Notes: a model not told the origin generated them from the sequence alone. A stretch of DNA of 64,000 nt from Escherichia coli (GCF_048403405.1 NZ_CP183131.1), one strand, 5' to 3'; positions 1 through 39,004 are shown, counted from the stretch's first letter. A program made the numbers and translations.

Positions 1-1655
1 TCGCTTCGTTCACAGAGGTCAATCACTGAGCGACATGCCGGGGCGCTTTGAGGCTGCCCGTCAGTCACTACGATCAACATTTTTCGCTCTTCACGGGTCT
101 TGGTGAGTTCAAAAGCTGCATACCACATAGCTTCCGCCATAGGCGTACCGCCAGTTGCTTTGAACCCAAACCGACCGGCCCGATTCTGAACCGTATCTCC
201 ATGCTTCACGACACTGAACACTGGCTGGTTCCGGTTGCCACCAAAAAAGGTGACTGCCGGGTTTACGCCGGGTATTGCTTCCAGAGCCATCGAAATAGCC
301 AAGGACGCTTCCCGCGCAATGTCTTGACGCTCCTTTCCATTGGCGGCCTTGTAGGCCATCGAGGAGCTCATATCAACCAGGATGTGAACCGCCGTATTAG
401 GGCGTTTCTTGGCTTCCGGCTTGAGGAATACGCGGGTATCACCCGTCACTACACGATGTAGTTTCCGAGCATCCACACGCTTCCCTGATCGTTGGTTACG
501 GTGAGCAACTCGCTGGCTGGCCTGGACCAATCCGTAGAGCTGCGTTCTTATCTTTGAAGTGGTGCTCTTCACATCCCCTACCAGGCTTTTGCCAACAGCA
601 GGGTTGTCCTGGGTGTTCACAGCAGAGCGAACAGTCATATAGCTACTGTCCCCCTTATCTTGAGCCACCCGGTTGAGCTCGGCTTTAAGTGCATCATGCG
701 CGTCACCACGCAAATCACCGGCACCGGCATTCAGAACCTGCTGGAGCATTTTGGCCGCGTCTTGTTTCGCCGCGTCAGAATTGCCACCAGCCTGGCTTTG
801 TCCTGCCTTGCTGCCACCATCAGTATCCGACTTGCCTTGGTCGCCCTGTCCTTTCGGATCAGATTTCCCGTTAGCATCGTCTTGCTTCTGGTCTTTACCT
901 TGCTGATCACCACCATTGGCATCAGGCCCTTGGTTTTGATCGTTACCACTTCCGCCCTGACTGTTCTGAGGTTGGTTGCCACCAGCATTCTGCTGGTTGT
1001 TACCATCCTGACCATTCAGGGGCTTTTGCTCTTCTTTCTCCTTTTCCTCCTCGATCATCTTGATGATTTGGTCGGCCAAGGATGTCACCTCTGCGGTTGA
1101 CTTAGTGTTCACAGCCTTACGCAGTAAAGCGTTCAGCCGAACAACAACACCCTGAGGGAACACGCGCTCGAATACGGGGGTAGCCGAATCGAGATAGGGT
1201 TGAAGGACGGATTGCCCTACAGCCTTGGTTTGCAACCAGTACAAACAAAACCCTGTCAGAATGGAGGCAGGGGCCTCTTTGTCTGTGACGTGCTCGTAAT
1301 GACCAGCTTGAGCCATATAGCGAGCAACCTCATTCAGGGTCTGCGACGTACCGGGGAAGAGTTCCATCATGGCCCGTTCTATGCGGCAGTCCTCCAAAAC
1401 GTTGGACAACTCAGCATGAAGACCTCTGCGGCGCTCAACACCAAAGTCCGTAAACCGGACATGGGCTGCTTCATGGGCCAAATACCCCCAGACAGCATCC
1501 ATGTGAGGATAGTCGTCGGGGATATTCGGAACCACGATGGTCTTACCATCGGTGTATGCGTCATCGTTACCGATGGCGACTTTGACACCGAGTTTTTCAC
1601 CATAGGCTGCGGCCACGATTGGTAGAGCGCTGTAAATGGTGCGTTTTTTGGACAT
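1..1655 (-). CDS. vWA-domain protein (CobT-like partner of the CobS-like ATPase); 3' end runs off the window start
   Basis: Open minus-strand frame from ATG ~1655 (AGGAG 7 nt upstream) to position 1; absent from ORF track because no stop lies in the window. Hand translation of several stretches gives a Q/G/N/D-rich linker, then MIDAS-like VHILVDMSSS and VVTDGQPD. Confidence 0.7.
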   Translation of the reverse strand, partial: MSKKRTIYSALPIVAAAYGEKLGVKVAIGNDDAYTDGKTIVVPNIPDDYPHMDAVWGYLAHEAAHVRFTDFGVERRRGLHAELSNVLEDCRIERAMMELFPGTSQTLNEVARYMAQAGHYEHVTDKEAPASILTGFCLYWLQTKAVGQSVLQPYLDSATPVFERVFPQGVVVRLNALLRKAVNTKSTAEVTSLADQIIKMIEEEKEKEEQKPLNGQDGNNQQNAGGNQPQNSQGGSGNDQNQGPDANGGDQQGKDQKQDDANGKSDPKGQGDQGKSDTDGGSKAGQSQAGGNSDAAKQDAAKMLQQVLNAGAGDLRGDAHDALKAELNRVAQDKGDSSYMTVRSAVNTQDNPAVGKSLVGDVKSTTSKIRTQLYGLVQASQRVAHRNQRSGKRVDARKLHRVVTGDTRVFLKPEAKKRPNTAVHILVDMSSSMAYKAANGKERQDIAREASLAISMALEAIPGVNPAVTFFGGNRNQPVFSVVKHGDTVQNRAGRFGFKATGGTPMAEAMWYAAFELTKTREERKMLIVVTDGQPQSAPACRSVIDLCERS

Positions 1656-1739: not shown

Positions 1740-3017
1740 TTAGAAGAAATAGTCGCCATCGTCGTCAGTTTTAGGCAGCTCCTGGTTGAGAGGCTCCTCT
1801 GTCGGCTCCTCTTGGACAGGCTCTTGCTCTACCGGAGTTTCCTCAGGCAAAACCGGCTCATCCTCAACATCAACGCGCTCTTCTCGAACCACATCACCGG
1901 CATTGGATTCATCTTCCGATTCACCCTCGCCTCGTTCTGCAAAACTCTTGAAGAAGTTGTCGATGTCTTCATCCAGGTCAACAGCGTTACCACCGCTGTT
2001 AGTCTGTTCTGATTGAACAGATTCAGTACCACCTACCTGTTGCTGCTTGGTTTCGCCACCCTCTGTTGCAGGGATAAGCTCACCGGCTTTATCGCTTTTC
2101 TGTTCGGCCTTTTCATCTTTAGAACGGTCCCCCATCTGGGCTCCCGAACCGCCAATGTCATTAGCCATGCCCTCTACAGTAATCGAGCCATTGGCATACT
2201 GCTCGATGCGGTCCCTCTCGCTCATGATCAGCACTGCGGCCACGACCTGATAAAAGAAAGGCGCAACGATGTTTCGGCCATCGGCATGTTGCTCGTATCC
2301 CCGGAGGGTTTGGTCGAGCAGCTTGACCAGAGGGTTAAAAGCGCTGTTCAGGAAGCTAAGCCCATCCACCTTGTCGCGGATGTTACGGAGTGTCTGCCGA
2401 GTAGTGACCGCACATTGGTCTCGACCGGCCAAACGTTCCATATAGAACTTATTCGCTTCCTGAACCACTTCGGAGATGAGATCGTCACCCAAGCGCTCAA
2501 CCTTGCGGTTAAGGCGTTTGGCGTTGGCCTCATCTTCGTTCACAGGCTGGATCATGAACACCTGGTACTCAAAGCCAATCCGCTCCTCGACCGTTTCCTT
2601 TGGAAGGGCTCCGGCACGGATAGCTCGTTCATACTCAGGGTTCTCCTGACACCATTCATCCACGGCTTTGTTGTAACCTTTGATGAAATCCTGTTTCAGT
2701 TGGTTAAACTGAAAGTTTATGTCATTCAGCTTGTTACAGATTTCATCGGTCTTGCTGACGGGTACGGCAAATCCGTTCATGAACGGCATACCGAATTTCA
2801 GCAGGAGGCGACGAGTTTCTGTTTTCAGGCGATGAAAGCCTTTCAGCTTAGCCGGATCACAGATCTTCTTACTTCCCAGTTGAGCTACTTTCTCAGGTGG
2901 AATTTCACCACCCTCGCCCAGCTTGAGATCAGATGCAGACAAACGGGTTTGTCCACTCCAGATGTCAAAGTCTACGTGGATAACACAGAGGCTTTGTAGA
3001 TGGTTCACTTTAGTCAT
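1740..3017 (-). CDS. hypothetical protein with acidic C-terminal region ending DDDGDYFF
   Basis: ORF-track frame 1740..3029 uses a TTG; first ATG at ~3017 has GGAG 7-8 nt upstream. No recognisable catalytic motif. Confidence 0.6.
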   Translation of the reverse strand: MTKVNHLQSLCVIHVDFDIWSGQTRLSASDLKLGEGGEIPPEKVAQLGSKKICDPAKLKGFHRLKTETRRLLLKFGMPFMNGFAVPVSKTDEICNKLNDINFQFNQLKQDFIKGYNKAVDEWCQENPEYERAIRAGALPKETVEERIGFEYQVFMIQPVNEDEANAKRLNRKVERLGDDLISEVVQEANKFYMERLAGRDQCAVTTRQTLRNIRDKVDGLSFLNSAFNPLVKLLDQTLRGYEQHADGRNIVAPFFYQVVAAVLIMSERDRIEQYANGSITVEGMANDIGGSGAQMGDRSKDEKAEQKSDKAGELIPATEGGETKQQQVGGTESVQSEQTNSGGNAVDLDEDIDNFFKSFAERGEGESEDESNAGDVVREERVDVEDEPVLPEETPVEQEPVQEEPTEEPLNQELPKTDDDGDYFF

Positions 3018-3039
3018 GATGCACTCCAAAAAGTTGGGG

Positions 3040-3159
3040 GCGCACCACGTCCCGAACCGGGCGGATGCGCCCGGTTGGGCTAGTAAATTAACGTTAATTT
3101 GCTGTTTGTTTTTGGCGACCAGCTATCGCACTTTTCGCTCTCCGAAGAGAACAAAATCT
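3040..3159. repeat. 120-bp direct repeat copy A (hairpin AACCGGGCG-N4-CGCCCGGTT plus palindrome AATTAACGTTAATT), ~25-35 nt upstream of the 1740..3017 gene start
   Basis: Matches 7875..7994 over the full 120 bp by eye. Confidence 0.85.
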
Positions 3160-3216
3160 TGCTTTCCGTTGGAGACTCCCAGAATCCCCAAGGGAAAGCG
3201 GGGGAAAATCCCCCAC

Positions 3217-4227
3217 TCACCAGTAGAACGTCTCTACTTCTTCCGGCAAATCATCAAGAGGAGCAAGCACGTCCTCATCAACAATGTACCGTGGCTTCAC
3301 AGAGCCAGTAACCGTTACACGGCACCGCTCTGATGACTTCTCTCTGTACTGGTCAACATCCTCAGGCTTCACGCCTGACGCCTTATCAGCCAACAGCTTT
3401 TTGTAGTCTACCCGGCCAGCCGCTTTGTATCTCGTTACCATCACACCGCAGTAGTCGGCATGGAAGTATTCCCCCATGAGGGACTTCATGGTGTCGAGAT
3501 GAGGCTTTTGCCTTTCTTGAAGCTCAGACAGTCGCTGTTTCAGCTCCTGAATCTCAGCATCATAGAGGCGGTATTCCTCAGCAGCAGCAATCCAACGGTT
3601 GACCTCTTCACCTTGCGGTATGTACAGGTCTCTCTCTGGATCTTTGTCGGGCTCCTTCTTGTCTACTACCTGTTGCCAGAACTTTTTAGCCTCGGCCAAG
3701 ATTTCTTGAATCATGGCTTCGTCTCGGAGTATTGGAAACTCCTGAATCTGACCTTCAAAGTAGAAGACTAACCAGCCTTGCTTGGCCCCCGTTACCAGGA
3801 GCTGGTGTTGCACCTGCGGGTAATAAAGCTGGTATGCCTTGCTGTTTGCTTTCTCAGCACAAACATCTTCCCAGACAGTCGCACTCGGGCTTTTCAGCTC
3901 GACGGGCTCCCCGTTATCTCTCAGGCCATCCAGGGAGGCCCTCATGAGCGGGTATTGAACCGATTCGACACAGGCGGGGAGCAGCATGTCATCATACTTC
4001 TCCTCGAAAGCGCGTCTTGCAGCATCTTCGTTTTCTATCCCCCGGCGAACCAGCGGATTAAGACTCAGATCGACTTCACGCGCATACCCAGTCTTCTCGG
4101 CCCACAGTCTCCATCGTGTTTTGTACGGAGACCGATTGAGCAGGATAGCGGCGTCAGTGGCTGTTACACCTTGACGCCGCCAATCAAGCCAATCTTCCTC
4201 TCGTTGCGATAGGTTGACTATTTTCAT
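3217..4227 (-). CDS. exo: lambda Exo / YqaJ-like 5'-3' exonuclease
   Basis: 336-aa product resembles lambda exonuclease family; GGAGAGAGG before ATG; sits directly downstream of bet. Confidence 0.8.
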   Translation of the reverse strand: MKIVNLSQREEDWLDWRRQGVTATDAAILLNRSPYKTRWRLWAEKTGYAREVDLSLNPLVRRGIENEDAARRAFEEKYDDMLLPACVESVQYPLMRASLDGLRDNGEPVELKSPSATVWEDVCAEKANSKAYQLYYPQVQHQLLVTGAKQGWLVFYFEGQIQEFPILRDEAMIQEILAEAKKFWQQVVDKKEPDKDPERDLYIPQGEEVNRWIAAAEEYRLYDAEIQELKQRLSELQERQKPHLDTMKSLMGEYFHADYCGVMVTRYKAAGRVDYKKLLADKASGVKPEDVDQYREKSSERCRVTVTGSVKPRYIVDEDVLAPLDDLPEEVETFYW

Positions 4228-4289
4228 GGACCTCTCTCCAATGGTTAGGAGGGAGATCTCCCCCAGCGGGGGAGTCCCCCCCGTTGGGG

Positions 4290-5279
4290 TTAGTAGTAAC
4301 TGCCTTCCGCGCCCTCCTCTTCTGTAACAGGGATCATGTCCTCGTCACTCAAAGGCGGCATTTCTTCGGCACCAGGTTCAGCATTTGCAGAACCACCAGC
4401 GGCGGACTCTTGCTCGTGCGCTTCCTGGTAGTCAGGTTTCGGAGGCTCCATTTGATCCATCTCCTTGTCACGAAGGAATTGAGTCGCATATTGCAGTTCC
4501 GAACCTTCATACCGTCCCTTCACATACTCATGCGCCGCAGACCATGCGTTTTCAGCAATGGCGCGATTTGCGAGTTTGGTTAGGATCGGGTCAAGCTCTT
4601 TGTGCTCAATAGCCAAAGGCTCTTGGCTTTGAACTTGAGATGGTGAAGGGAGATTGGCAATAGCCGGGTTAATGGCCGATGCCTGCTCCATTTCACGGAT
4701 GCGTTCAGCTTCATCCTGGTCATAAATACCAGAGAAACCAAATGCGACACGAGAACACTGGATCAGCGACTTGTGCCGGAGTTGACGCTTGGTGTGCGTT
4801 TGCCAGGGGCCATCAACAGTGTAAGCACCATTGCGACCTTGACCCTGAAACGGTTCACGGTACACCTCATCAATGAACTCCTTGATGCGGATAGGGCGAG
4901 ATCTGTCCTTACGGTAAATCACGCATTCAATCCACTCAGGGCAGTCAACTTTCGCCCCCTGCATTCTGACCATCTTGTCCGAATACACGAACTCGACGCC
5001 ATCATACTGGGGATGCTCGTTGATGATGCGGCTCCAACCATCAACACCTACTACCGGAATGATCCCATTTTGCTTGTCAGGAAACGCATAGATTTCCCGA
5101 GTGAAAGGGTTCAAACCGTACTGTTCAGCCACGATCAGGAGCGTCATCATCTGCTCATCGGTCGGGGCACTTCCATCTCGCTGCTTGAATGCGGTCGCCT
5201 TCAAAGTTTCATAGAACTTTCGGGTGTCCACGCCAAACCGGCTTGCGATACGGGTTACAAGAGATTTGTTATCAGACAT
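4290..5279 (-). CDS. bet: Bet / RecT-family single-strand annealing protein
   Basis: Strong similarity to lambda Bet (LIVAEQYGLNP, EIYAFPDKQNGIIPVVGVDGWSRIINE, RQLRHKSLIQCSRVAFGF). Start moved to internal ATG with GGAG RBS. Confidence 0.9.
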   Translation of the reverse strand: MSDNKSLVTRIASRFGVDTRKFYETLKATAFKQRDGSAPTDEQMMTLLIVAEQYGLNPFTREIYAFPDKQNGIIPVVGVDGWSRIINEHPQYDGVEFVYSDKMVRMQGAKVDCPEWIECVIYRKDRSRPIRIKEFIDEVYREPFQGQGRNGAYTVDGPWQTHTKRQLRHKSLIQCSRVAFGFSGIYDQDEAERIREMEQASAINPAIANLPSPSQVQSQEPLAIEHKELDPILTKLANRAIAENAWSAAHEYVKGRYEGSELQYATQFLRDKEMDQMEPPKPDYQEAHEQESAAGGSANAEPGAEEMPPLSDEDMIPVTEEEGAEGSYY

Positions 5280-5373
5280 GGTGTTTCTCCAATTCACGAA
5301 TGAACGGTTTGAGGACACCATGACCCCCTCGGGGCATGAGTGCCCCCGTGGGGTTTAGTAAGAGTTGGCGGTG

Positions 5374-5901
5374 TTACCCGCCAGCCAAGTGGTGCAGCCG
5401 CATGAACGGGATGTCATCATCCCAGCCATCAGGAGCGGGACCATAGCCTCCGCCCATACCACCTTGCGGTGCTGATTGCTGCACAGGAGCAGATTGCGTA
5501 CCGGCTCCTGTACGTTGCCCTTTTTGGGGCGCTGCACGTTGAGAGTTGTCCTGAGGTGCATTTCCACGACCACCAAGCATCTGCATTTCAACGCAGTGTA
5601 CTTCGGTGGTGTAGCGCTCGATTTGTTGGCTGTCAGTCCACTTCCGGGTGCGGTTGCTCCCTTCGAGATAGACTTGGGAGCCCTTTTTCAGGTACTCACC
5701 AGCGACTTCTGCCAAACGACCTTTAAGCACAATACGGTGCCACTCAGTATGCTCTCTTTGCTCGCCAGACTGCTTATCGCGCCACGTATCCGTTGTTGCA
5801 ACGTTGAAGTTGGCAACGGCAGTTCCGCTTGGCATGTAGCGAATTTCCGGGTCAGAACCGAGATTACCGACCAGAATTACTTTGTTGACGCCTTTAGACA
5901 T
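5374..5901 (-). CDS. ssb: single-stranded DNA-binding protein
   Basis: OB-fold N-terminus ([22 protein letters not shown]), glycine-rich linker, canonical C-terminal tip DDDIPF. Confidence 0.9.
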
Positions 5902-5964
5902 CATGACCTCCAAGTTATTTGGAGAGGGCCAACGCCCCTTTCGGGGAGCAAGCCCCCGTAAGGG

Positions 5965-6873
5965 TTAAAAAAAGTGATCCTCTTGTTCGGCGTCGATCTC
6001 TGCCAGGCGAATCAGCTCAGATACAAGGCCAAGCCTTTCTGCATCTGCTCTTACTTCGTCGTAGCTGAAACCAAACCGTTCAATGAGGGGTTTTAGTGAA
6101 TCAAAACGCTCGTAGTCGAAGGTATCACCCTGTTCATCACAGAATGCCACCAGCGGCTTCTCTACGTTTGAAAAGTCATCCGCGAAACGCTGTTGCAGGT
6201 AAACCAACATCAGCAGGGGTTTGTGACCATGTTCCGGGCGGAGTTCACCAGCGCCTTCCAGCGTAGCTGGATGGATAGTGTTTTCGCCTAGTCCAGTGCT
6301 AACCCCAAGCTCATAACCGCTGTCAGTACGCATCAGCACACTGGGTAGCAAGTCATTTGAGCCTTCGCTCCGAGCAACCTCAAAGCCGATTAAACCGGCT
6401 CCTTTGGCAAAAACCCCAGCAACAAAACCTTTGAAGAGGTTTATGTCACCTGGAGGTAACTCAGAGGGCGGAGATAACAGCCAGTTGAGAGATCCCAAGC
6501 TGGCTGTTTGTCCGGCTGAAACATTCCCCCCTTCCAGCACCGTCTGTGTCTCTGCGTTTACCAGCACCTCATCCAGAAAGGTGTACCCCTGGCTGAGAAA
6601 CTGTGACACATACTGGCTTTCTTTGTCCTTGTAGGACATTGGGATCGTGTCTGGGCCGTTAGCTTCAAAAGGTCCTTCGAGCTTTGTCTCAGACCAATTT
6701 TCAGCTTTCCCATCAGTGACGGTTCGGCGTAGCTCGACCATCGTGAATTGGCCTGGCTCCGAGGAGCTGGGCTCCCGGAGCAACTTGTAGCCAATGAAGA
6801 CTTCTATTGTGGTTTCGTCATTGCCCCACTCTTTAGCAGTGTAACGACGGCACAAACAGTCATTTTTCTTCAT
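5965..6873 (-). CDS. hypothetical protein, C-terminus EQEDHFF
   Basis: 302-aa ORF packed between cobS-like gene and ssb on the same strand. Confidence 0.55.
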   Translation of the reverse strand: MKKNDCLCRRYTAKEWGNDETTIEVFIGYKLLREPSSSEPGQFTMVELRRTVTDGKAENWSETKLEGPFEANGPDTIPMSYKDKESQYVSQFLSQGYTFLDEVLVNAETQTVLEGGNVSAGQTASLGSLNWLLSPPSELPPGDINLFKGFVAGVFAKGAGLIGFEVARSEGSNDLLPSVLMRTDSGYELGVSTGLGENTIHPATLEGAGELRPEHGHKPLLMLVYLQQRFADDFSNVEKPLVAFCDEQGDTFDYERFDSLKPLIERFGFSYDEVRADAERLGLVSELIRLAEIDAEQEDHFF

Positions 6874-6883
6874 GCGTCACCCC

Positions 6884-7852
6884 TTAGCGCCATTGGTCCC
6901 CGAACACATCCTTCGCAACACGCAGGATGGCTTCACGCTCCTCTTTGGCCGCACGGATAAGCAGAGCTTGATCCAGGGCGTATTCAAGAGCATTTGGGGC
7001 ACCACGGAACGCTAGAGACAGTTTCGCCCAACGCACCAACGTCCGAGTGGACATGGTGACGCTGATCTGACCATCTTCACCGTTTTCGCCAAGAAACAGT
7101 TTGCGGACCTGATTAGCAATCCGAACCATTCCCTTCCGCACATTTTCCGGAAGTTTCGGAGTAACACGGCCAAGAATGCTGAGTTCAGCTTCCTCATCCG
7201 CATACCCTACTTTGGTGAAACGATAGCGATCCATAGCTGCGAGGTTCTGCATCATCACCCCCTGGTACAAACCAGAAGCATCACCGGACCCCGTAGAGTT
7301 ACCAGTAACGACCACACGAAACATCGGGTGCGGCTTGATGATTTCCCCGCCATTCTGAGCGATCACAAGGGGACGCCCTTCAAGGACATCGTTGAGACCA
7401 GCCAGCTCGGCAGGGTCGGCCAAATCCACCTCGTTGATGAGGAGCAGATGACCTTCACGCATAGCGACTGCCAGAGGTCCATACATGAACTTCATGACAG
7501 GTGGTTGACCAGGCTTTTCCGCGACCAGAGCGTGATGTCCAATCAGATCTGTCAGCTCCATCCGCCCGTGGGCAGTGATTTGCTGAACAGGCCAGTTGAG
7601 ACGACCAGCGATCTCGGTGATACCTGAGGTTTTGCCAGACCCGGTAGGGCCGGTTACGAACAATGCGTCACCGCCAGGCTCTTTGAGATAGGCCAAGACC
7701 TCTCGCAGAAACTCTTTGCGGAAAACGTAGTTGGTATCAGTGGCAGGGATGAAAGGGTTTGAACCGTCAGCGTAGCCGATGGCCGTTACCTTCTCCGGAA
7801 TGCTGGGCATACCGAAAACCTTGCTTACTGAGAATTGAGAGTATTGAGACAT
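6884..7852 (-). CDS. CobS-like / MoxR-type AAA+ ATPase
   Basis: Walker A GPTGSGKTS; Walker B-like LLLINEVD; AGGAG 7 nt before ATG. Confidence 0.8.
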   Translation of the reverse strand: MSQYSQFSVSKVFGMPSIPEKVTAIGYADGSNPFIPATDTNYVFRKEFLREVLAYLKEPGGDALFVTGPTGSGKTSGITEIAGRLNWPVQQITAHGRMELTDLIGHHALVAEKPGQPPVMKFMYGPLAVAMREGHLLLINEVDLADPAELAGLNDVLEGRPLVIAQNGGEIIKPHPMFRVVVTGNSTGSGDASGLYQGVMMQNLAAMDRYRFTKVGYADEEAELSILGRVTPKLPENVRKGMVRIANQVRKLFLGENGEDGQISVTMSTRTLVRWAKLSLAFRGAPNALEYALDQALLIRAAKEEREAILRVAKDVFGDQWR

Positions 7853-7874
7853 AGGTGCGCTCCTATTGTGACAG

Positions 7875-7994
7875 GCGCACCACGTCCCGAACCGGGCGGA
7901 TGCGCCCGGTTGGGCTAGTAAATTAACGTTAATTTGCTGTTTGTTTTTGGCGACCAGCTATCGCACTTTTCGCTCTCCGAAGAGAACAAAATCT
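7875..7994. repeat. 120-bp direct repeat copy B, immediately upstream of the cobS-like gene start
   Basis: Identical by eye to 3040..3159. Confidence 0.85.
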
Positions 7995-9093: not shown

Positions 9094-9174
9094 TTCGAGA
9101 GGTCAGGTTACAGATTGACCGCATTTATCCTTTCCAGTGCGTTTATCTGTACCTCAAATTTAGGAGTATCTCTA

Positions 9175-9816
9175 ATGGCAGAAGCACAAGTAGCACTGGA
9201 CACAAACAACGACCGCAGCAACCACTACTCTCGCCCTGTTTTCAAGCAAGTTCTGAAAGTAAACAGCCTCCAAGCTCAGCGCGTCATGGAACGCAGCTTT
9301 GAGCGAGTTTCCAACTCCCTGTTCTCCATCGACGTGATCCTTCGCATCATCGGTGAGCAGGACGAAATCGACCAGGTTGAAACCGTCATCCTGGAACACA
9401 TTTCCAAGGTCTCCGAAGACCTGGACAAAGCTACCGCCCAGCTCAACAAGCTGATGGAAGACAACGGCATCGACATGATGCCCGGCTACACCAACCCGAA
9501 TGAATACACCATCGAGATCAACTCTCCTCAGGTTGCTCAGTTTGCACACCTGATCCGCAAACTGGATACCCTGATGGGGATCGTTGACACTCTCTGGCTG
9601 AACACCGTACTGACCAGCAAGCAGCGCACCGACGCCACTTACCAATGGCAGCAACGCCTCATCAAGCTGGCCGGTCGAATCATCGGCATCGAGAAACGGG
9701 CTCGCATTTCCGCCCACAGCAAAGGCAAAGAAGGTGAAGTGGCCGAAGCCGCTCCGGAATCTGCAACCGGCGACAAGGAAATCGCAGACGAAGCCGAGAA
9801 AACAAAAGCAGCATAA
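9175..9816 (+). CDS. hypothetical protein (213 aa)
   Basis: AGGAG 8 nt before ATG at 9175 (ORF-track frame 9115..9816); followed by a terminator. Confidence 0.6.
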   Translation: MAEAQVALDTNNDRSNHYSRPVFKQVLKVNSLQAQRVMERSFERVSNSLFSIDVILRIIGEQDEIDQVETVILEHISKVSEDLDKATAQLNKLMEDNGIDMMPGYTNPNEYTIEINSPQVAQFAHLIRKLDTLMGIVDTLWLNTVLTSKQRTDATYQWQQRLIKLAGRIIGIEKRARISAHSKGKEGEVAEAAPESATGDKEIADEAEKTKAA

Positions 9817-34163: not shown

Positions 34164-36029
34164 TTACTGGGTCAATATGGGCAGACGGCCTTTTACGATT
34201 GTTCCGCCTGAAATTTTGGCTATGTATTCCAGGTTCGGAAGCATTCCCAATAACTGGGCTGGGAACAGATCAGCTTCCTCCTCCATCAAACGCTCGCCTT
34301 GGTTGCCTCCGTGCATAATGGGCTCCTTGCCATCCGAGTTCTGGCCTTGAGTCCGCATGACGTACTTGAGCCGGGTCTTCGGCAGGTTATCCGCGATATA
34401 CTCCTGGGTTTCACCATCGACGATACGCAGAGCAAACGTGTTGTTGATGTTCCCCAACACCTGGAGCGCTTTGTCTTTGCTACCCAGTCGAGCTGCGAAG
34501 TCAGCAAAAGTCTGAGTTGCAACGAAAAGACGAAGTTTCGCACCGCGACCTTTGTTCAGGAGCTGGATGAACGGGTCGTTGATCACCTCGGCAGCCTCAT
34601 CAACAAAGATATTTACGGGTCTGTTGTTGACGCCGTAGTTGTATCTGTCACCGGCAACCGCTGTCAGGTCTGACAGGAAGATGGACCCCATAGCACTACC
34701 AACCATGTTGTCGGTCAGGGAGTCGAGCCCCAGATAAGCAACTTGAGCGTTGTTGATGATTTTTGCGGAATCGGTGATCTGGCGTTCGTCGCTCAGATCA
34801 GATGAGTCTGGAGACAGCAGAGGGCCTAGCTCCCCGGACGTCAGCATATTCATGATCGGCAGGAGGTTCGCCACCATCTTGGAGAAGTGGGTTTGGTCGT
34901 GCTGGAACATCGACAGCAAGCCTTCCAGGTCAGAGTTCGGGTGCTCAGGTTGGATGATGTCGTAGTAGAACTTCATCAACGCGAAAGCGATCTTCTCACG
35001 CGAACCGTTTTTGGCTTTTTCCAAGTAAGCCGCTGCTTCTGCCTCCCAGTCGGGCATAACTCGCTCTGAGTAAGCCTGAACGGCCTTGATGACCAAGCCA
35101 GCAGCGCCACCTTCAAGGAATCGGCGGAGCTTTGTCAGGTTGGGACGATCATGAGTGATGACCAAGCCCTGAGCGATGTTGTTCAGTGCCTGCCATCCAA
35201 ATGATTTGAACGGGTCGGCCCCTGCTTCGGACGGGATCAACGCTGCCAAACGACTTGCGATTTCAGTCACGCGGGTGAAGTTACGCAGAGGGTCGATACG
35301 CACCGACTCTTCCGGGAATGCTGGATGAAATGAGACGAATCTTTCCGGCTGCCCCATAGCTTCACAGGCACGTCGGGCATTGTCCCGCATCTCCTTATCC
35401 CCTTTCGGGTCTATGATGATCACGGCTTCCCCACGCAGAATGGCCTGTGAAATCAGGATGTCGAACATACGGGTCTTGCCCGAGCCGGTGGTCCCAACGA
35501 TCAGCGAATGCCCCTCAGTGTGCTTGAGTGGCTGCATCAGCTTCTCTTCTTTGGGCTCTACCCCGTGAATCCAGGGCTGGCCGATTGGCAGCTCCTTTTT
35601 CTTACCCTGTATCTTCCGGACAACCTTTTTGACCGTGGACTCTCTCCCTACGATGGAAGTCCAGTCGCGTTTCAGGATCTCAAACACGCGCTGGGCATGG
35701 CGGTTTTCCCACAGGAACCCACTACCAAGCCACATATCGTCCGGCGTGTCCTTGATGTACTTTTGGAGCTCCGCAATGGAAATAAACTCCAGATCACGCC
35801 CCTTCAAATGCTTTTGGAGCAGGTGAAGTTTGATAGCCTTGGGCAAACGAGCCATCGCCATCACGCCACAGATCCCCGTCATCCAATAGAATGGCTCCGG
35901 CGGCATCGTGCTGACTTGCTCTACGGCCAAAGCCGCGCCGGAGGCGGCAAGCCAGCCTGCTACAGCATTTTTTTCATAGTTGGGCCGCCACGGCATCTCG
36001 TAGGCGAGCGGGTCATAACTCATTGTCAT
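34164..36029 (-). CDS. traD: TraD/VirD4-family type IV coupling protein
   Basis: Walker A VGTTGSGKT; N-terminal TM helices; overlaps traI stop. Confidence 0.9.
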   Translation of the reverse strand: MTMSYDPLAYEMPWRPNYEKNAVAGWLAASGAALAVEQVSTMPPEPFYWMTGICGVMAMARLPKAIKLHLLQKHLKGRDLEFISIAELQKYIKDTPDDMWLGSGFLWENRHAQRVFEILKRDWTSIVGRESTVKKVVRKIQGKKKELPIGQPWIHGVEPKEEKLMQPLKHTEGHSLIVGTTGSGKTRMFDILISQAILRGEAVIIIDPKGDKEMRDNARRACEAMGQPERFVSFHPAFPEESVRIDPLRNFTRVTEIASRLAALIPSEAGADPFKSFGWQALNNIAQGLVITHDRPNLTKLRRFLEGGAAGLVIKAVQAYSERVMPDWEAEAAAYLEKAKNGSREKIAFALMKFYYDIIQPEHPNSDLEGLLSMFQHDQTHFSKMVANLLPIMNMLTSGELGPLLSPDSSDLSDERQITDSAKIINNAQVAYLGLDSLTDNMVGSAMGSIFLSDLTAVAGDRYNYGVNNRPVNIFVDEAAEVINDPFIQLLNKGRGAKLRLFVATQTFADFAARLGSKDKALQVLGNINNTFALRIVDGETQEYIADNLPKTRLKYVMRTQGQNSDGKEPIMHGGNQGERLMEEEADLFPAQLLGMLPNLEYIAKISGGTIVKGRLPILTQ

Positions 36030-39004
36030 GTTTCATTTACCTCTAAATACAATTTTCCCTGACGTTTCTTGAGCAAAGGGCGTCTCTGTGCCCGGCTCAG
36101 CATCCCGCAGAGGATGTGTTTGCTGATGCCGATGTTTTCACCGGCAATCATGTCGAAGGCTTTGTCACTGGTTACTAAGCAGCCATCCTCTTCCAGGACA
36201 GGTGTCACGAGCCATCGGCCCGAGCGTTTTTGGATCATGTCCTTGAGCATCTGGAGTGCTTTCTGAGGCGTAACACCAGACGGCAAGAAATCTTCCGCGT
36301 TGATGTCTTTCGGGTTTGTTTTCGCCTTAGGCGGCTCAAACTCCCTAACCTCTGGATCTTCCCTTTCTCGCACCTCGACGTGTCCCAATTCCTTCTCACG
36401 CTCAACTTTGGGCTCAGGAGCCACCGGTTGAGCCTCCCGCTTAGGAAGGCGAGCCACGTTCTGTTTTTCTTGGACCGGCTTGCGCTGTTGCTCTTCAACC
36501 GGAGAAGTAACATCGACCTTCTTCTCCTTCGGCTGTGGCTGGGAGTCCTTACCTTTCGCCTTTTGTTCAGGCGAGGCTTTACCGGCATTAACCTCAGGCT
36601 TCTGCTGCTGCGCCTTTTTTCGGCTTTGTTGTTTCGGTGCAGACTTATTTTTGCTTGCATCCAAGCCAGGGGGAGAGACGAGCTCAAAGGCATCCTGGTA
36701 TCCACCCATTGACGCCTCGGCATCCTTAATGGCCGCCACGACTGCATCTGAAAGCTGCTCCGCCAGTACAATTGCCTTCACTCCGCTGAAATCACGAACT
36801 TTGCGACCTGGCATAATCGGGTCCGGAACAATCGCGTTGGCGTGGGACAGCTTCGAGAGAACCTCTGACGGCGCACCCAGCGACCGAGCGCCATCCGGGT
36901 ACAAAATGACGGCTTGCCCCTTCATCAGGCATAGGACTTCGCCCAGCGTCGTTTTACCTTCCAAAACAGGCATGATCGCTTGTTCAAGCAACGCCGATGC
37001 TTCCCCGTATCCAGACAACATCTCAACGAGCAAGGTCTTTGCGTCCTTCTCATGCTGATTAACGTTGTCCGTATGCGGCATTTCTGGCGTGTGCGTTGGT
37101 TGTTCTGGTGCGTCAGTCAGCATAGGGAGCGGCTCAATCGCCCATGATGGCGGTTCATCAGAACCACCGAACATTGGAAAGTCATCGCCCTGCAGGGAGT
37201 TTTGTTCTTGTGGAACGAAGTCCTGTTTTGGCTGCTCCTCTTGCTTTCCGGGCATTGCCACATCTGGGATTTCTGAGTTTGTTGCGTCAGTGCTGGTTGT
37301 CTCTGCCGATGCGTTGAATGCGTCAAACGGGAAGTCGATGTCCCCCAGTCCACCCCCAACATCCTTGAGTGCTTGTAACGGATTGTCGTTTGCCAAAGGT
37401 GGTGCGTTTTTGGCAATGTCCTGAGGGGACAGATCCTCTTTTGCCTCTGGTTTATGGGGTTGTTTCTCCGTATCACTCTTCGGTTTTGCTTTGCCCGGTT
37501 TGCTCTGCGGCTTACCCTTCTTGCCAGCGTCAGGCTTAGATGATTCCGTTGGTCCCGCATCTTTTTGCTCTGGCTTCTCCTCGACAGCATCGGAGGTGCT
37601 TTTCAGCATCTCCATCGCATCACCAAAGCCAAGGCCAGCTAGAGCTTTCTCTGCTTCCTGCTCTGCGGCCAACATGTCATCGTTCAGAGCTGCTTCACCT
37701 TCCTCTTGGTCGTCACCGTCATCGGCTTCCTCAGGATCAACGAACTCAATCTCAGCGTCCTCAACATCACCAACAACTTCCGCAGCAACAGCCGCAGGAG
37801 GCTCAGTCGTAAACACCAGGTCGTTTGATTCGAGTCGGAGCATCAAGATCTTCACCGAACCCGCCGCCTCCTGGAGCATCTCAGGCAAAACTTCCCAGTA
37901 GCGGTAGTACGCACGTTCACCCTTCTCCTGCACCGTGTTTGGTACAGCAAAACCACGTTCGATGAGAATGTCGGCCAGTGTGTCAGGGTCTCGTGGGATA
38001 CCGGGGATCTTGTCGTGGCTGATCAAGTCATAAAGGTCCCCAAGCTGTTTCCAGGCAATGAATACACCTTGGTTGAGGTGCCAGACTTTCGCGCCTGGCT
38101 CATTGACCTTCCATTTTCCGGTTTTAACCAGGCGGCGGATGGCATCGAACACGTAACGCTCGACGGGCACACCATAGGAGAACTCGTCCACATCGAGACG
38201 ACTCTGGCGAAGGTCCCGTGAGACGCTCTCTTGGTCAGCGCGAAGCATCAGCTTGGTCACAGGCTGATTGACGCTGGTTCCTGAGATAGCTTCCAGCATC
38301 GCTTCCATGATGGACGGGCCAGACTTGGACAGAAACTCCCGAGTCTCAGCCGGAATAATTCGATCCACCGCCAGCAGCGAGAATTGCTCATGTCTTTTGT
38401 GTCGCTTGTCGCGCCACCGGATAAAGTAACGGTCGATTTCGTGACGGTGTGCCCAGTCATGAAGTGACTCCGAATACGGGTTCCATGTGATTGACCCGTC
38501 TTTGTCCGTAATGGACACATCCGAGAGCGGTTTACCCACATCATGCAGCAGCCCAGAGAAACAGCTCGCCAGTCTCCAACGCGGCTCATTGTCACGGCGT
38601 TCCCGAGGCGTCCCCTCGATGGAAAAGATAACTGACTCAGATGCCTGAGCTGCCCAGAAGGCCACTTCAAGCCCATGTCGGAACAGACCACCAGCGCCAC
38701 GGTGGTGGTGTGATTCGGAAGCTGGCAACAGGTGAACAAACGCGGCATACCGCTGGATCACCGGCAAAACAAGCCGGTTGAAGTCGTCCACAGTGAAACC
38801 GAGAGAGTTCCGCACTTTCTCAATCAGTTCAGCTTGGGTTGCCAGTATCTTGTCTAGTGGGGCCACTGGCAGGCCCTTGGCAAAAGGTGGGTATCGAGGG
38901 ATTTCTTCATCTTCCACGTCTTTAAGCGGCAACACTCTGGCGCTCGGCGCGGTCTCGATCACTCCACTTCGCCCACCAAATAACTTGTTAAGGGCTTTCA
39001 GCAT
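36026..39004 (-). CDS. traI: MOBH-family relaxase TraI (HD-domain)
   Basis: 992 aa; HD motifs HHHRGAGGLFRHGLEV and GLLHDVGKP; low-complexity K/P/E/Q-rich C-terminal region; followed by traD. Confidence 0.85.
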   Translation of the reverse strand: MLKALNKLFGGRSGVIETAPSARVLPLKDVEDEEIPRYPPFAKGLPVAPLDKILATQAELIEKVRNSLGFTVDDFNRLVLPVIQRYAAFVHLLPASESHHHRGAGGLFRHGLEVAFWAAQASESVIFSIEGTPRERRDNEPRWRLASCFSGLLHDVGKPLSDVSITDKDGSITWNPYSESLHDWAHRHEIDRYFIRWRDKRHKRHEQFSLLAVDRIIPAETREFLSKSGPSIMEAMLEAISGTSVNQPVTKLMLRADQESVSRDLRQSRLDVDEFSYGVPVERYVFDAIRRLVKTGKWKVNEPGAKVWHLNQGVFIAWKQLGDLYDLISHDKIPGIPRDPDTLADILIERGFAVPNTVQEKGERAYYRYWEVLPEMLQEAAGSVKILMLRLESNDLVFTTEPPAAVAAEVVGDVEDAEIEFVDPEEADDGDDQEEGEAALNDDMLAAEQEAEKALAGLGFGDAMEMLKSTSDAVEEKPEQKDAGPTESSKPDAGKKGKPQSKPGKAKPKSDTEKQPHKPEAKEDLSPQDIAKNAPPLANDNPLQALKDVGGGLGDIDFPFDAFNASAETTSTDATNSEIPDVAMPGKQEEQPKQDFVPQEQNSLQGDDFPMFGGSDEPPSWAIEPLPMLTDAPEQPTHTPEMPHTDNVNQHEKDAKTLLVEMLSGYGEASALLEQAIMPVLEGKTTLGEVLCLMKGQAVILYPDGARSLGAPSEVLSKLSHANAIVPDPIMPGRKVRDFSGVKAIVLAEQLSDAVVAAIKDAEASMGGYQDAFELVSPPGLDASKNKSAPKQQSRKKAQQQKPEVNAGKASPEQKAKGKDSQPQPKEKKVDVTSPVEEQQRKPVQEKQNVARLPKREAQPVAPEPKVEREKELGHVEVREREDPEVREFEPPKAKTNPKDINAEDFLPSGVTPQKALQMLKDMIQKRSGRWLVTPVLEEDGCLVTSDKAFDMIAGENIGISKHILCGMLSRAQRRPLLKKRQGKLYLEVNET

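Follow-up and report, generated by a model that had tools for sequence, protein, structure and literature searches.

Acidic tails with terminal aromatic residues are a known class of docking peptide, found at the tip of SSB, the protein that binds single-stranded DNA, on gp2.5 and gp4 of the T7 replisome, and in the TraD-TraM pair of the F plasmid. The SSB C-terminus (SSB-Ct, ...DFDDDIPF) is a portable docking peptide with an acidic, flexible leader and an aromatic residue at a free C-terminus; in T7, the SSB (gp2.5) and the helicase (gp4) both carry acidic, Phe-ended tails, and both tails go to the same basic patches of the T7 DNA polymerase. PMC4124056 cites the tail interactions of gp2.5. 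In the F plasmid, the tail of TraD, highly acidic and with conserved aromatics, docks weakly in a groove of the TraM tetramerisation domain, relies on avidity to do so, and shows allele-specific co-variation with TraM between plasmid lineages (PMC3159463). Here, we take up one stretch of DNA, 64,000 nucleotides of Escherichia coli (GCF_048403405.1 NZ_CP183131.1), the whole of which we call the window, and we ask one question of it: why do four non-homologous proteins of a single plasmid operon, the hde ("host defence evasion") operon, all end in tails of this kind?

Judged by its sequence, the window is the backbone of an IncC plasmid. Over the 6.5 kb around the tail genes, many conjugative plasmids of the IncC (IncA/C2) group show a sequence identity of 100%, and 732 plasmid records match the tail region at an identity of at least 99%. 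That identity, together with the order of the genes (AAA_5/CbbQ_C, a protein of no known domain, SSB, Bet, Exo), marks the region, on the same grounds, as the published hde operon (vcrx089-093) with vcrx094 (DUF3150) and a gene for a CobT-like VWA protein. The operon was described on pVCR94, where its open reading frames (ORFs) are co-transcribed through vcrx094 (PMC7498323). Its first two genes, vcrx089-090, which encode an ATPase and a protein of 302 residues, act against type I restriction, and ssb-bet-exo (vcrx091-093) repair breaks induced by CRISPR or restriction via single-strand annealing (PMC7498323, PMC11602122). By genetics, vcrx089 and vcrx090 act jointly, in a function that is needed transiently, on entry (PMC7498323). 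Deletion of vcrx089-90 raises EcoBI restriction ~425-fold, and deletion of exo does likewise (PMC11602122); polar effects are possible for these phenotypes (PMC7498323). The published genetics is compatible with one shared pathway. Neither PMC7498323, from which the very word "tail" is absent, nor PMC11602122 mentions the C-terminal tails, and we found no description of them in the searchable literature.

How does this locus compare with the systems already described? As in T7, several proteins of one mobile element would dock, or hand over, at a common partner by way of an acidic-aromatic tail; the T7 case, however, concerns replication rather than recombination or anti-defence, involves other proteins, and has had no concerted switching over multiple lineages described for it. 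TraD offers a plasmid-encoded acidic tail with aromatics and a co-variation specific to lineages, but there a single tail bearer meets a single receptor within the conjugation machinery, whereas here the tail sits on three or four proteins. The enzymes themselves have relatives in lambda Red: a nuclease with the lambda-Exo fold adjoins an annealer of the RecT/Red-beta family, which is the make-up of a lambda-Red-type recombinase (SynExo), and the annealer has a small helical C-terminal domain. Coupling of such a nuclease to such an annealer has been proposed by analogy (Roy et al.). Lambda Exo, however, has 226 residues, is without a C-terminal extension or tail, and contacts Red-beta by an internal helix and Phe94, whereas Exo here has an extra domain of ~110 residues and a flexible tail, and that tail recurs on two proteins that are not recombination proteins. 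Finally, the module combines an ATPase of the AAA_5/CbbQ_C kind with a CobT-like VWA protein whose metal ion-dependent adhesion site (MIDAS) is intact, the pairing of the MoxR AAA+/VWA two-component systems and of the AAA_5/MIDAS remodellers (Rea1/Mdn1; CbbQ-CbbO; CobS-CobT), although the more distant AAA/VWA/DUF3150 sets are without tails. What is new is that the same peptide is found on three or four non-homologous anti-defence and recombination proteins of a plasmid and that it evolves on them in concert.

Four tails in one operon

The four tails read as the original prediction gave them, all on the minus strand: Vcrx090 ends in EQEDHFF (5968..5988), Bet in EEGAEGSYY (4293..4319), Exo in EEVETFYW (3220..3243), and the DUF3150 protein in DDDGDYFF (1743..1766). 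Vcrx090, the 302-residue protein (5965..6873), has no known domain and no match in Pfam, PHROG, or PDB. Bet (vcrx092, 4290..5279, with a longer ORF to 5321) is the single-strand annealing protein (Pfam RecT; PHROG Bet-like, E 4e-75; a RefSeq CDS), Exo (vcrx093) lies at 3217..4227 and matches Pfam YqaJ, and the DUF3150 protein, a homologue of vcrx094 with 425 residues, is encoded at 1740..3017 (longer ORF to 3029). The prediction spoke of four consecutive recombination-module proteins, a description that needs some repair. The genes share the minus strand and run AAA, Vcrx090, ssb, bet, exo, DUF3150, VWA. SSB sits between Vcrx090 and Bet, and the four are not strictly consecutive; moreover, the label suits Exo and Bet, and it does not suit Vcrx090, the partner of an anti-restriction ATPase, or the DUF3150 protein, neither of which is known as a recombination protein. 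Because two of the four tail bearers fall outside recombination, the "recombination complex" that had been suggested for them is too narrow a name.

Is it surprising to find four such tails together? Of the 63 proteins of the window (non-overlapping gene proxies), no others close with two aromatic residues, and each of the four has three or four acidic residues at positions -10 to -3, a combination (two terminal aromatics with at least three acidic residues) that we estimate, from amino-acid composition, to occur in ~4 of every 10,000 proteins. The Bet family serves as a control: two terminal aromatics are found in 5 of its 149 representatives (at 50% identity). The count in the window and this control make the pattern more than chance. 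The same 5 of 149 make the Bet tail specific to one clade, the IncC-like one, whose Bet proteins end in HYY, NYF, AFY, or GYF, with two lineages that have FF followed by 5-8 residues.

For each protein, we gathered homologues and read their C-termini; some of those derived from metagenomes may be truncated, and the SXT/R391 prototypes were left out of this survey. Two aromatics close 92 of the 109 full-length Exo homologues, with the consensus E-x-V-E-[ST]-x-[YFW]-[FW], and 87 of the 117 DUF3150 homologues, a set that goes down to 40% identity and in which 7 more end in Ar-x-Ar (e.g., DDWAW). For Vcrx090, the count is 16 of 17, with FF in 15 and mostly after ED (...EDxFF), and orthologues from 12 further loci likewise end in two aromatics. 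Position by position, the DUF3150 tail is aromatic at -1 in 91% of the 117 and at -2 in 79%, it is acidic at -4 to -8 in 50-57%, and basic residues are essentially missing from -1 to -9. The linkers before the tips, that of DUF3150 among them, are hypervariable and cannot be aligned; the tips are kept down to ~40% identity. Conservation in homologues, which the original prediction had named as one check on its idea, is found for Exo, DUF3150, and Vcrx090 and is not found for the Bet family at large.

The two larger families travel together: on plasmids, Exo and DUF3150 are found in 1131 and 1102 records, respectively, with the same distribution over genera, and all of the elements studied are of the MOBH/MPF_F type. 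Scanned with a DUF3150 alignment, the viral contigs of IMG/VR gave no relative, and a tblastn search of phage genomes with Exo gave distant matches only (<33% identity, mostly in phages of Gram-positive bacteria), which are uninformative for the tail.

DUF3150 has, in addition, a second, internal copy of the motif, DLDEDIDNFFKSF (residues 347-359; 1941..1979, minus strand), with the family pattern [DE]x[DE][ILM]DxFF. It forms a conserved column block over 22 diverse homologues and lies in a predicted helix (347-362) that stands out from the disorder around it, with a predicted local distance difference test score (pLDDT) of ~78.

Structures were predicted for Exo and for DUF3150, each as a single protein. 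In the AlphaFold model of Exo (mean pLDDT 94; 61 on average over the last 6 residues), a lambda-Exo fold over residues ~1-200, which Foldseek matches to lambda Exo itself (3sm4/1avq/6m9k, E 3e-11), gives way to a long helix and a beta domain that extend to ~325 and then to a flexible tail. The DUF3150 protein is modelled as a folded helical N-domain (residues 5-289) with ~135 mostly disordered acidic residues after it, and its tail, at the end of that long disordered linker, has a pLDDT of 40-52. In Bet, a helical C-terminal domain is followed by a disordered acidic stretch and then the tail, so that in both DUF3150 and Bet the tail comes after 50-135 disordered residues. According to these models, the tips are exposed and flexible.

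Tips that switch together

Loci with the same gene set, drawn from genomes, plasmids, and metagenome contigs and referred to by L numbers where a handle is needed, were compared tip by tip, and the tails within one element turn out to be more alike than each of them is to its own orthologues elsewhere. In IncC, the tips are HFF (Vcrx090), SYY (Bet), FYW (Exo), and YFF (DUF3150); in a Vibrio element (L008), they are SYF, NYF, AYF, and CYF, with YF in all four proteins. Element L015 has KMFF, AMFF, and SVFF, and L038 has AMFF, SMYF, and GMFF. A different class is seen in Pseudomonas aeruginosa pF061_2 (L020), where Exo ends in ...EAFCL, the protein after the AAA gene in ...SDFCL, and DUF3150 in ...EDFCL, and in a Pseudomonas plasmid (L032) with AFCI, EFCF, and DFCL. 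The IncT-like plasmids join Exo and DUF3150 tips as GVTLF with GIFLF, ALLLF with GIMMF, and QYVVF with TIMVF. In Pseudomonas paraeruginosa NZ_CP027167, Exo ends in ...SQFFGTFWF and DUF3150 in ...DMPFGTFWF, and on a TARA contig (L034) the motif has shifted inward in both proteins (Exo ...AYIG, DUF3150 ...AFFNNVV). A Vibrio alginolyticus plasmid (AP026557) has a DUF3150 with an FFF tail and two RecT-like genes, with no Exo in the ~120 kb of it that were surveyed.

NZ_CP027167 deserves a further word. There, the AAA-DUF3150-VWA trio lies ~14 kb from ssb-recT-exo, across traN, and the final hexapeptide of the two proteins is still identical. (This IncP-type sequence had been a candidate control without AAA, DUF3150, and VWA genes; it was dropped once the trio was found ~14 kb away.)

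When the tips were shuffled among elements within each family and the last three residues scored with BLOSUM62, the similarity within elements was 8.4, against 4.4 +/- 0.6 expected (p <= 2e-4). Could a DNA repeat, or gene conversion, be the sole cause of identical tips? At the level of DNA, the identity is limited to the tip codons, with one synonymous difference among them; the flanks show no relation and the stop codons are not the same, and we reject either one as the sole cause. Because the flanks and stops differ and a synonymous change is present, the sequences point to a functional peptide that is selected or converted and not to a long DNA repeat. In short, the motif exists, is under selection at the level of protein, is exposed and flexible, and changes in concert.

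What might read the tails

From these sequences, we infer that the tail is a binding peptide. Since a flexible and conserved terminal peptide switches in step on non-homologous proteins, we think it probable, rather than simply conceivable, that the tails are a shared docking motif, that is, a short linear motif read by a single site on one co-evolving partner. The motif would consist of a flexible acidic leader and a tip of two or three residues, hydrophobic or aromatic, that lies at the free C-terminus or very close to it. In nearly all elements of this family, its bearers are Exo, DUF3150, and Vcrx090, with Bet added in the IncC-like clade, and a single site, on one partner in co-evolution with the element, would bind all of the tails. 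Docking of this kind would tether the resection nuclease, the anti-restriction adaptor, and DUF3150 (with Bet, where it is tailed) in one assembly as the plasmid enters a new cell, or else the tail bearers might take turns on one hub. The docking pocket that the original prediction imagined fares unevenly: the tails do behave as though they served one common site, being conserved, flexible, and concerted in their switching, and there is no support for the SSB-tip pocket as that site.

Where, then, should one look for the receptor? It is more likely to be encoded by the element than to be a host protein, as far as the sequences can tell, because IncC-like and IncT-like elements share enterobacterial hosts and differ in tip class and because the tips drift far from what the SSB-binding or clamp pockets of a host would accept. 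Our first candidate, put forward tentatively and by analogy, is the C-terminal domain of the annealing protein (Bet/RecT), which in Bet comprises residues 227-276 (4452..4601, minus strand). Within this helical domain of ~50 residues, one Arg is nearly invariant and aromatics are conserved. A search of 4732 ORFs with a hidden Markov model (HMM) of it picks out RecT-type proteins in two other plasmids, at their C-termini (E 2e-7 and 8e-6); the cores of these annealers cannot be aligned with Bet by BLAST, and the same adaptor domain therefore appears on two different annealing cores. Two AAA/DUF3150/VWA sets, L029 and L030, have a DUF3150 without an aromatic tail and no Exo or annealer within the ~9 kb of flank examined. 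In lambda, the C-terminal domain of Red-beta binds Exo and also the SSB tip, through a hydrophobic pocket beside Lys253, and the contact with the SSB tip runs through the terminal Phe of that tip (PMC6393309). The published data on stimulation of SXT-Exo are non-specific. As an observation on the domain itself, the Bet of a Halomonas plasmid (L018 7445-8659) has two C-terminal domains of ~50 residues (259-307 and 354-399). A close second, though a doubtful one, is the MoxR AAA+/VWA-MIDAS pair, Vcrx089 with the CobT-like protein; what probability remains is split between another protein of the element and host targets.

Several observations weigh against a shared motif with one receptor, and we gather them here. 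The lineages are related, and the permutation p-value rests on ~4-5 independent switches of tip. Exo of the Halomonas-type clade (L018) is without a tail though Bet is present, the tips of a Comamonas lineage (L033) are dissimilar, and those of L017 are degenerate. Some Bet and DUF3150 proteins carry 2-8 residues after FF, and a free carboxylate is therefore not always required. As for the receptor, a tailed Bet in the IncC clade is awkward for Bet in that role, which would call for self-inhibition or for action between subunits, and the HMM of the Bet C-terminal domain misses the RecT proteins of the IncT-like elements.

Of the other ways to explain the tails, the one that survives best keeps the idea of shared docking and changes the receptor: the tails would be client tags for the element's own MoxR AAA+/VWA machine, an idea that we regard as possible and no better than doubtful. 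Vcrx089, the MoxR-type AAA+ ATPase, is encoded at 6884..7852 (minus strand; Pfam AAA_5 and CbbQ_C), and the CobT-like VWA protein, of 598 residues, at 1..1655 on the same strand, with its last 47 residues beyond the window (Pfam VWA and CobT; a RefSeq CDS on L001). One imagines either that the tail completes the coordination of the MIDAS metal, through an acidic side chain or through its terminal carboxylate, with the aromatics filling an adjacent pocket, or that the tail docks on the AAA+ ring; the ATPase might then remodel, load, or recycle Exo, Vcrx090, DUF3150, and Bet. MIDAS domains do take acidic ligand residues, and the AAA_5-MIDAS motor Rea1/Mdn1 reads one docking element on several clients. 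Every tail-bearing element examined encodes both the AAA_5/CbbQ_C ATPase and the CobT-like VWA protein, and neither has the tail in any orthologue examined (those of the ATPase end in ...FG[DE]QW[RK] or similar). All 13 VWA orthologues compared keep the MIDAS motif, DxSxS...GT...TDG, without variation, the Vcrx090 and DUF3150 genes directly adjoin the ATPase gene in most architectures, and L022, in which the VWA gene is missing, has a DUF3150 without a tail. The joint genetic action of Vcrx089 and Vcrx090 (PMC7498323) also agrees with a machine of this kind. However, the VWA protein, its MIDAS intact, is retained in L029 and L030 (in L029 along with the AAA protein), and in them an aromatic tail is missing from DUF3150 as well as from the protein encoded after AAA; L017 has kept both AAA and VWA, and its tips are degenerate. 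Nor do we know of any MoxR/VWA system that reads C-terminal tails. A more specific version, which we consider rather unlikely, is that the AAA+/VWA machine, perhaps with a peptidase, reads a private and co-evolving C-terminal code on the nuclease, the annealer, the anti-restriction adaptor, and DUF3150. The machine, made up of Vcrx089 and the CobT-like protein, would then load, recycle, or destroy the tagged proteins in the first minutes after entry into the host.

The idea of a peptidase goes back to the VWA protein. At residues 61-65, it reads HEAAH (L001 1360-3156, with orthologues in L019-L035); HExxH is found in 12 of 13 orthologues, the other reading HEGAGH, and a conserved N..ED.[RWA]IE lies ~25-50 residues downstream of HExxH, a zincin-like arrangement alongside the invariant MIDAS. 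Such a sequence hints at a domain of the metallopeptidase type that is coupled to the MoxR ATPase.

The original prediction itself saw in the tails a resemblance to the tip of SSB, from which it would follow that they mimic that tip and compete with it, or substitute for it, on proteins that interact with SSB (ExoI, RecQ, PriA, RecO, and others of the host, or Bet). We now think this unlikely. The resemblance is real: the tails share with SSB-Ct the acidic, flexible leader and the aromatic at a free C-terminus, some DUF3150 tails (MPDFEDD...FF) are very similar to it, one subclade of DUF3150 ends in ...MPDFEDDAEDAFF, close to the ...PMDFDDDIPF of E. coli SSB, and the internal motif reads DDDIDxFF. 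The contact of Red-beta with the SSB tip through its terminal Phe (PMC6393309) shows that an annealer can read such an end. It had been said as well that SSB of this operon ends in DDDIPF, and here the prediction was mistaken. The ssb gene (vcrx091, 5374..5904, minus strand; Pfam SSB, RefSeq CDS) continues past DDDIPF (5404-5421) with nine further residues, MRLHHLAGG (5377-5403), and RefSeq annotates the same end (5377..5421 for the two together), so that the canonical tip is internal. The extension is kept as MRLHPLEGG in an SSB of 56% identity (L005/L006). Elsewhere among MOBH elements, SSB ends in DIPF (L019), in YIPF and LD (L020), in DDDIPF and the 11 residues APISRLLLNII (L021), or in DDIPF and 21 more residues (L029), and the SSBs of IncT-like plasmids have an unrelated end, ...Y[AS]x[IMV]RG(D). 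In a 97%-identical, IncC-like copy from Shewanella profunda (L002 7055-7663), the frame of SSB shifts directly after DDD, and DDDIPF is lost.

The canonical pockets for SSB tips need the carboxylate of the terminal Phe. A capped tip should be unfit for them, and one could argue that the pocket is left to the other tails in IncC. Across lineages, the ends of SSB do not co-vary with the tails: they stay of the IPF type, or are unrelated, while the tails turn into FCL, FGTFWF, or MMF, and the idea of a pocket shared with SSB is therefore unsupported. Unlike SSB-Ct, which by definition is the extreme C-terminus of an OB-fold SSB, past an intrinsically disordered linker, the motif here is carried by four proteins that are not SSBs, and its tips (x-[FYW]-[FW], FCL, FGTFWF, or phi-phi-F) depart from the consensus D-[DE]-D-I-P-F, with two aromatics, FCL, or phi-phi-F at the end and essentially no Pro at -2. 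Host SSB tips are invariant, so that a mimic of host pockets should not drift by lineage, and the tails do drift, in concert and far from IPF (FCL, FGTFWF, IMMF), and they differ between IncC-like and IncT-like elements that live in the same enterobacterial hosts.

Might the tails instead be degrons, recognised by an AAA+ protease or adaptor of the host, so that Exo, Bet, and the anti-defence proteins would be short-lived once the plasmid is established? An exposed hydrophobic end on a flexible linker is the format of bacterial C-degrons, and a function required only transiently, on entry, would suit such a fate (PMC7498323). Other proteins of the same modules do have ends reminiscent of ssrA/ClpX: -AA closes many VWA proteins, RecT outside the IncC clade, a toprim protein, and small hypothetical proteins (...TAFAA, ...STAKAA, ...DLLAA, ...GLAA, ...RKAA) in L001, L005, L007, L014, L015, L017, L019, L020, L023-L030, L032, L038, and L039. 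The four tails, however, end in aromatics and not in the L-A-A or x-A-A of an ssrA-like degron, and we know of no bacterial protease that recognises acidic-aromatic ends. Degrons would not be expected to switch in concert, lineage by lineage, within shared hosts, nor would they account for the copy of the motif that DUF3150 conserves internally or for Bet variants with residues after FF; we consider them very unlikely.

Highly improbable, too, are motifs for the host sliding clamp (beta) that would direct the proteins to replication forks. Annealing of the Bet type does work at the lagging strand, and the IncT-like tips GIFLF, ALLLF, QYVVF, and GVTLF are loosely like the clamp pentapeptide QL[SD]LF. 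The IncC tips (GDYFF, ETFYW, EGSYY, EDHFF), FCL, and FGTFWF fit neither QL[SD]LF (or QLxLF more loosely) nor QLxLxL, however, and the clamp pocket is highly conserved across hosts, which makes switching by lineage unexpected.

Less credible still would be signals for type IV secretion (T4SS), by which the proteins would be delivered with the DNA from donor to recipient. C-terminal signals are the rule for T4SS substrates, those of Dot/Icm may be rich in Glu, and all of the elements are of the MOBH/MPF_F type. The 992-residue ORF at 36026..39004, which we take from its position to be a putative relaxase, ends in ...KLYLEVNET, without the motif, and the tails, strongly acidic and nearly devoid of basic residues, are unlike the Arg-rich signals of VirB/D4-type systems, which have a net positive charge over their ~20-50 residues. 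The hde proteins do act in the recipient, on entry, but the strongest single point against delivery is that vcrx089-090 complements its deletion when expressed in the recipient and not when expressed in the donor (PMC7498323).

Coincidence, which the original prediction had allowed for, or a structural role of each tail in its own fold is disfavoured to the point of being hardly tenable: the tips of Exo and Vcrx090 come only ~10 residues after the last element of predicted or conserved structure, and packing back on the protein's own domain is conceivable, but all four of the window's tailed proteins (4 of 63) belong to one operon, the tail is kept over hundreds of homologues, the tips have low pLDDT, those of DUF3150 and Bet lie far out beyond disordered linkers, and independent roles are contradicted by the concerted switching.

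The surrounding DNA and what the tails may mean

Some features of the DNA around the tail genes are worth recording in their own right. A perfect direct repeat of 121 nt (3039-3159 and 7874-7994) brackets the AAA-vcrx090-ssb-bet-exo block, one copy lying upstream of the ATPase gene and the other upstream of DUF3150, and each copy contains the palindrome AGTAAATTAACGTTAATTTGCT. The spacing of the copies, 4835 bp, fits the rptIVa-rptIVb deletion of 4936 bp, which has been described as a scar of Bet/Exo repair (Roy et al.). A few bases past the stop codon of each tail-bearing gene, there is a G+C-rich hairpin without a T-run, e.g., GGGGGATTTTCCCCC and CGGGGGCTTGCTCCCCG (1710-1739, 3187-3216, 4260-4289, and 5935-5964, minus strand), and similar hairpins follow the orthologous genes in other plasmids. 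A scan between genes for consensus Rho-independent terminators gave no more than chance and none at the four hairpin positions. In a chromosomal element (L035), AAA-DUF3150-VWA is followed by two Antirestrict (ArdA-like) genes, DUF3150 has a hydrophobic end (...QYCLF), and an ORF of 94 residues (9105-9389) resembles an internal fragment of Bet (IYALPDKRGGVIPV...), which suggests, from the sequence, that recombination genes are decaying there.

Plasmids of the IncC, IncA, and IncT types, along with those related to them, are major vehicles of multidrug resistance, and the hde operon enables them to survive restriction and CRISPR cleavage on entry into a host (PMC7498323, PMC11602122). A docking code on Exo, Vcrx090, and DUF3150, proteins not previously known as connected, would be, as far as we are aware, the first sequence-level evidence for a physical connection among them, and the tails offer a clear bacterial case of one short linear motif that evolves in concert across non-homologous proteins. 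If the receptor were identified, the pair of tail and pocket would explain why Bet and Exo come in partner-specific pairs, and it would provide a narrow target against the establishment of these plasmids.

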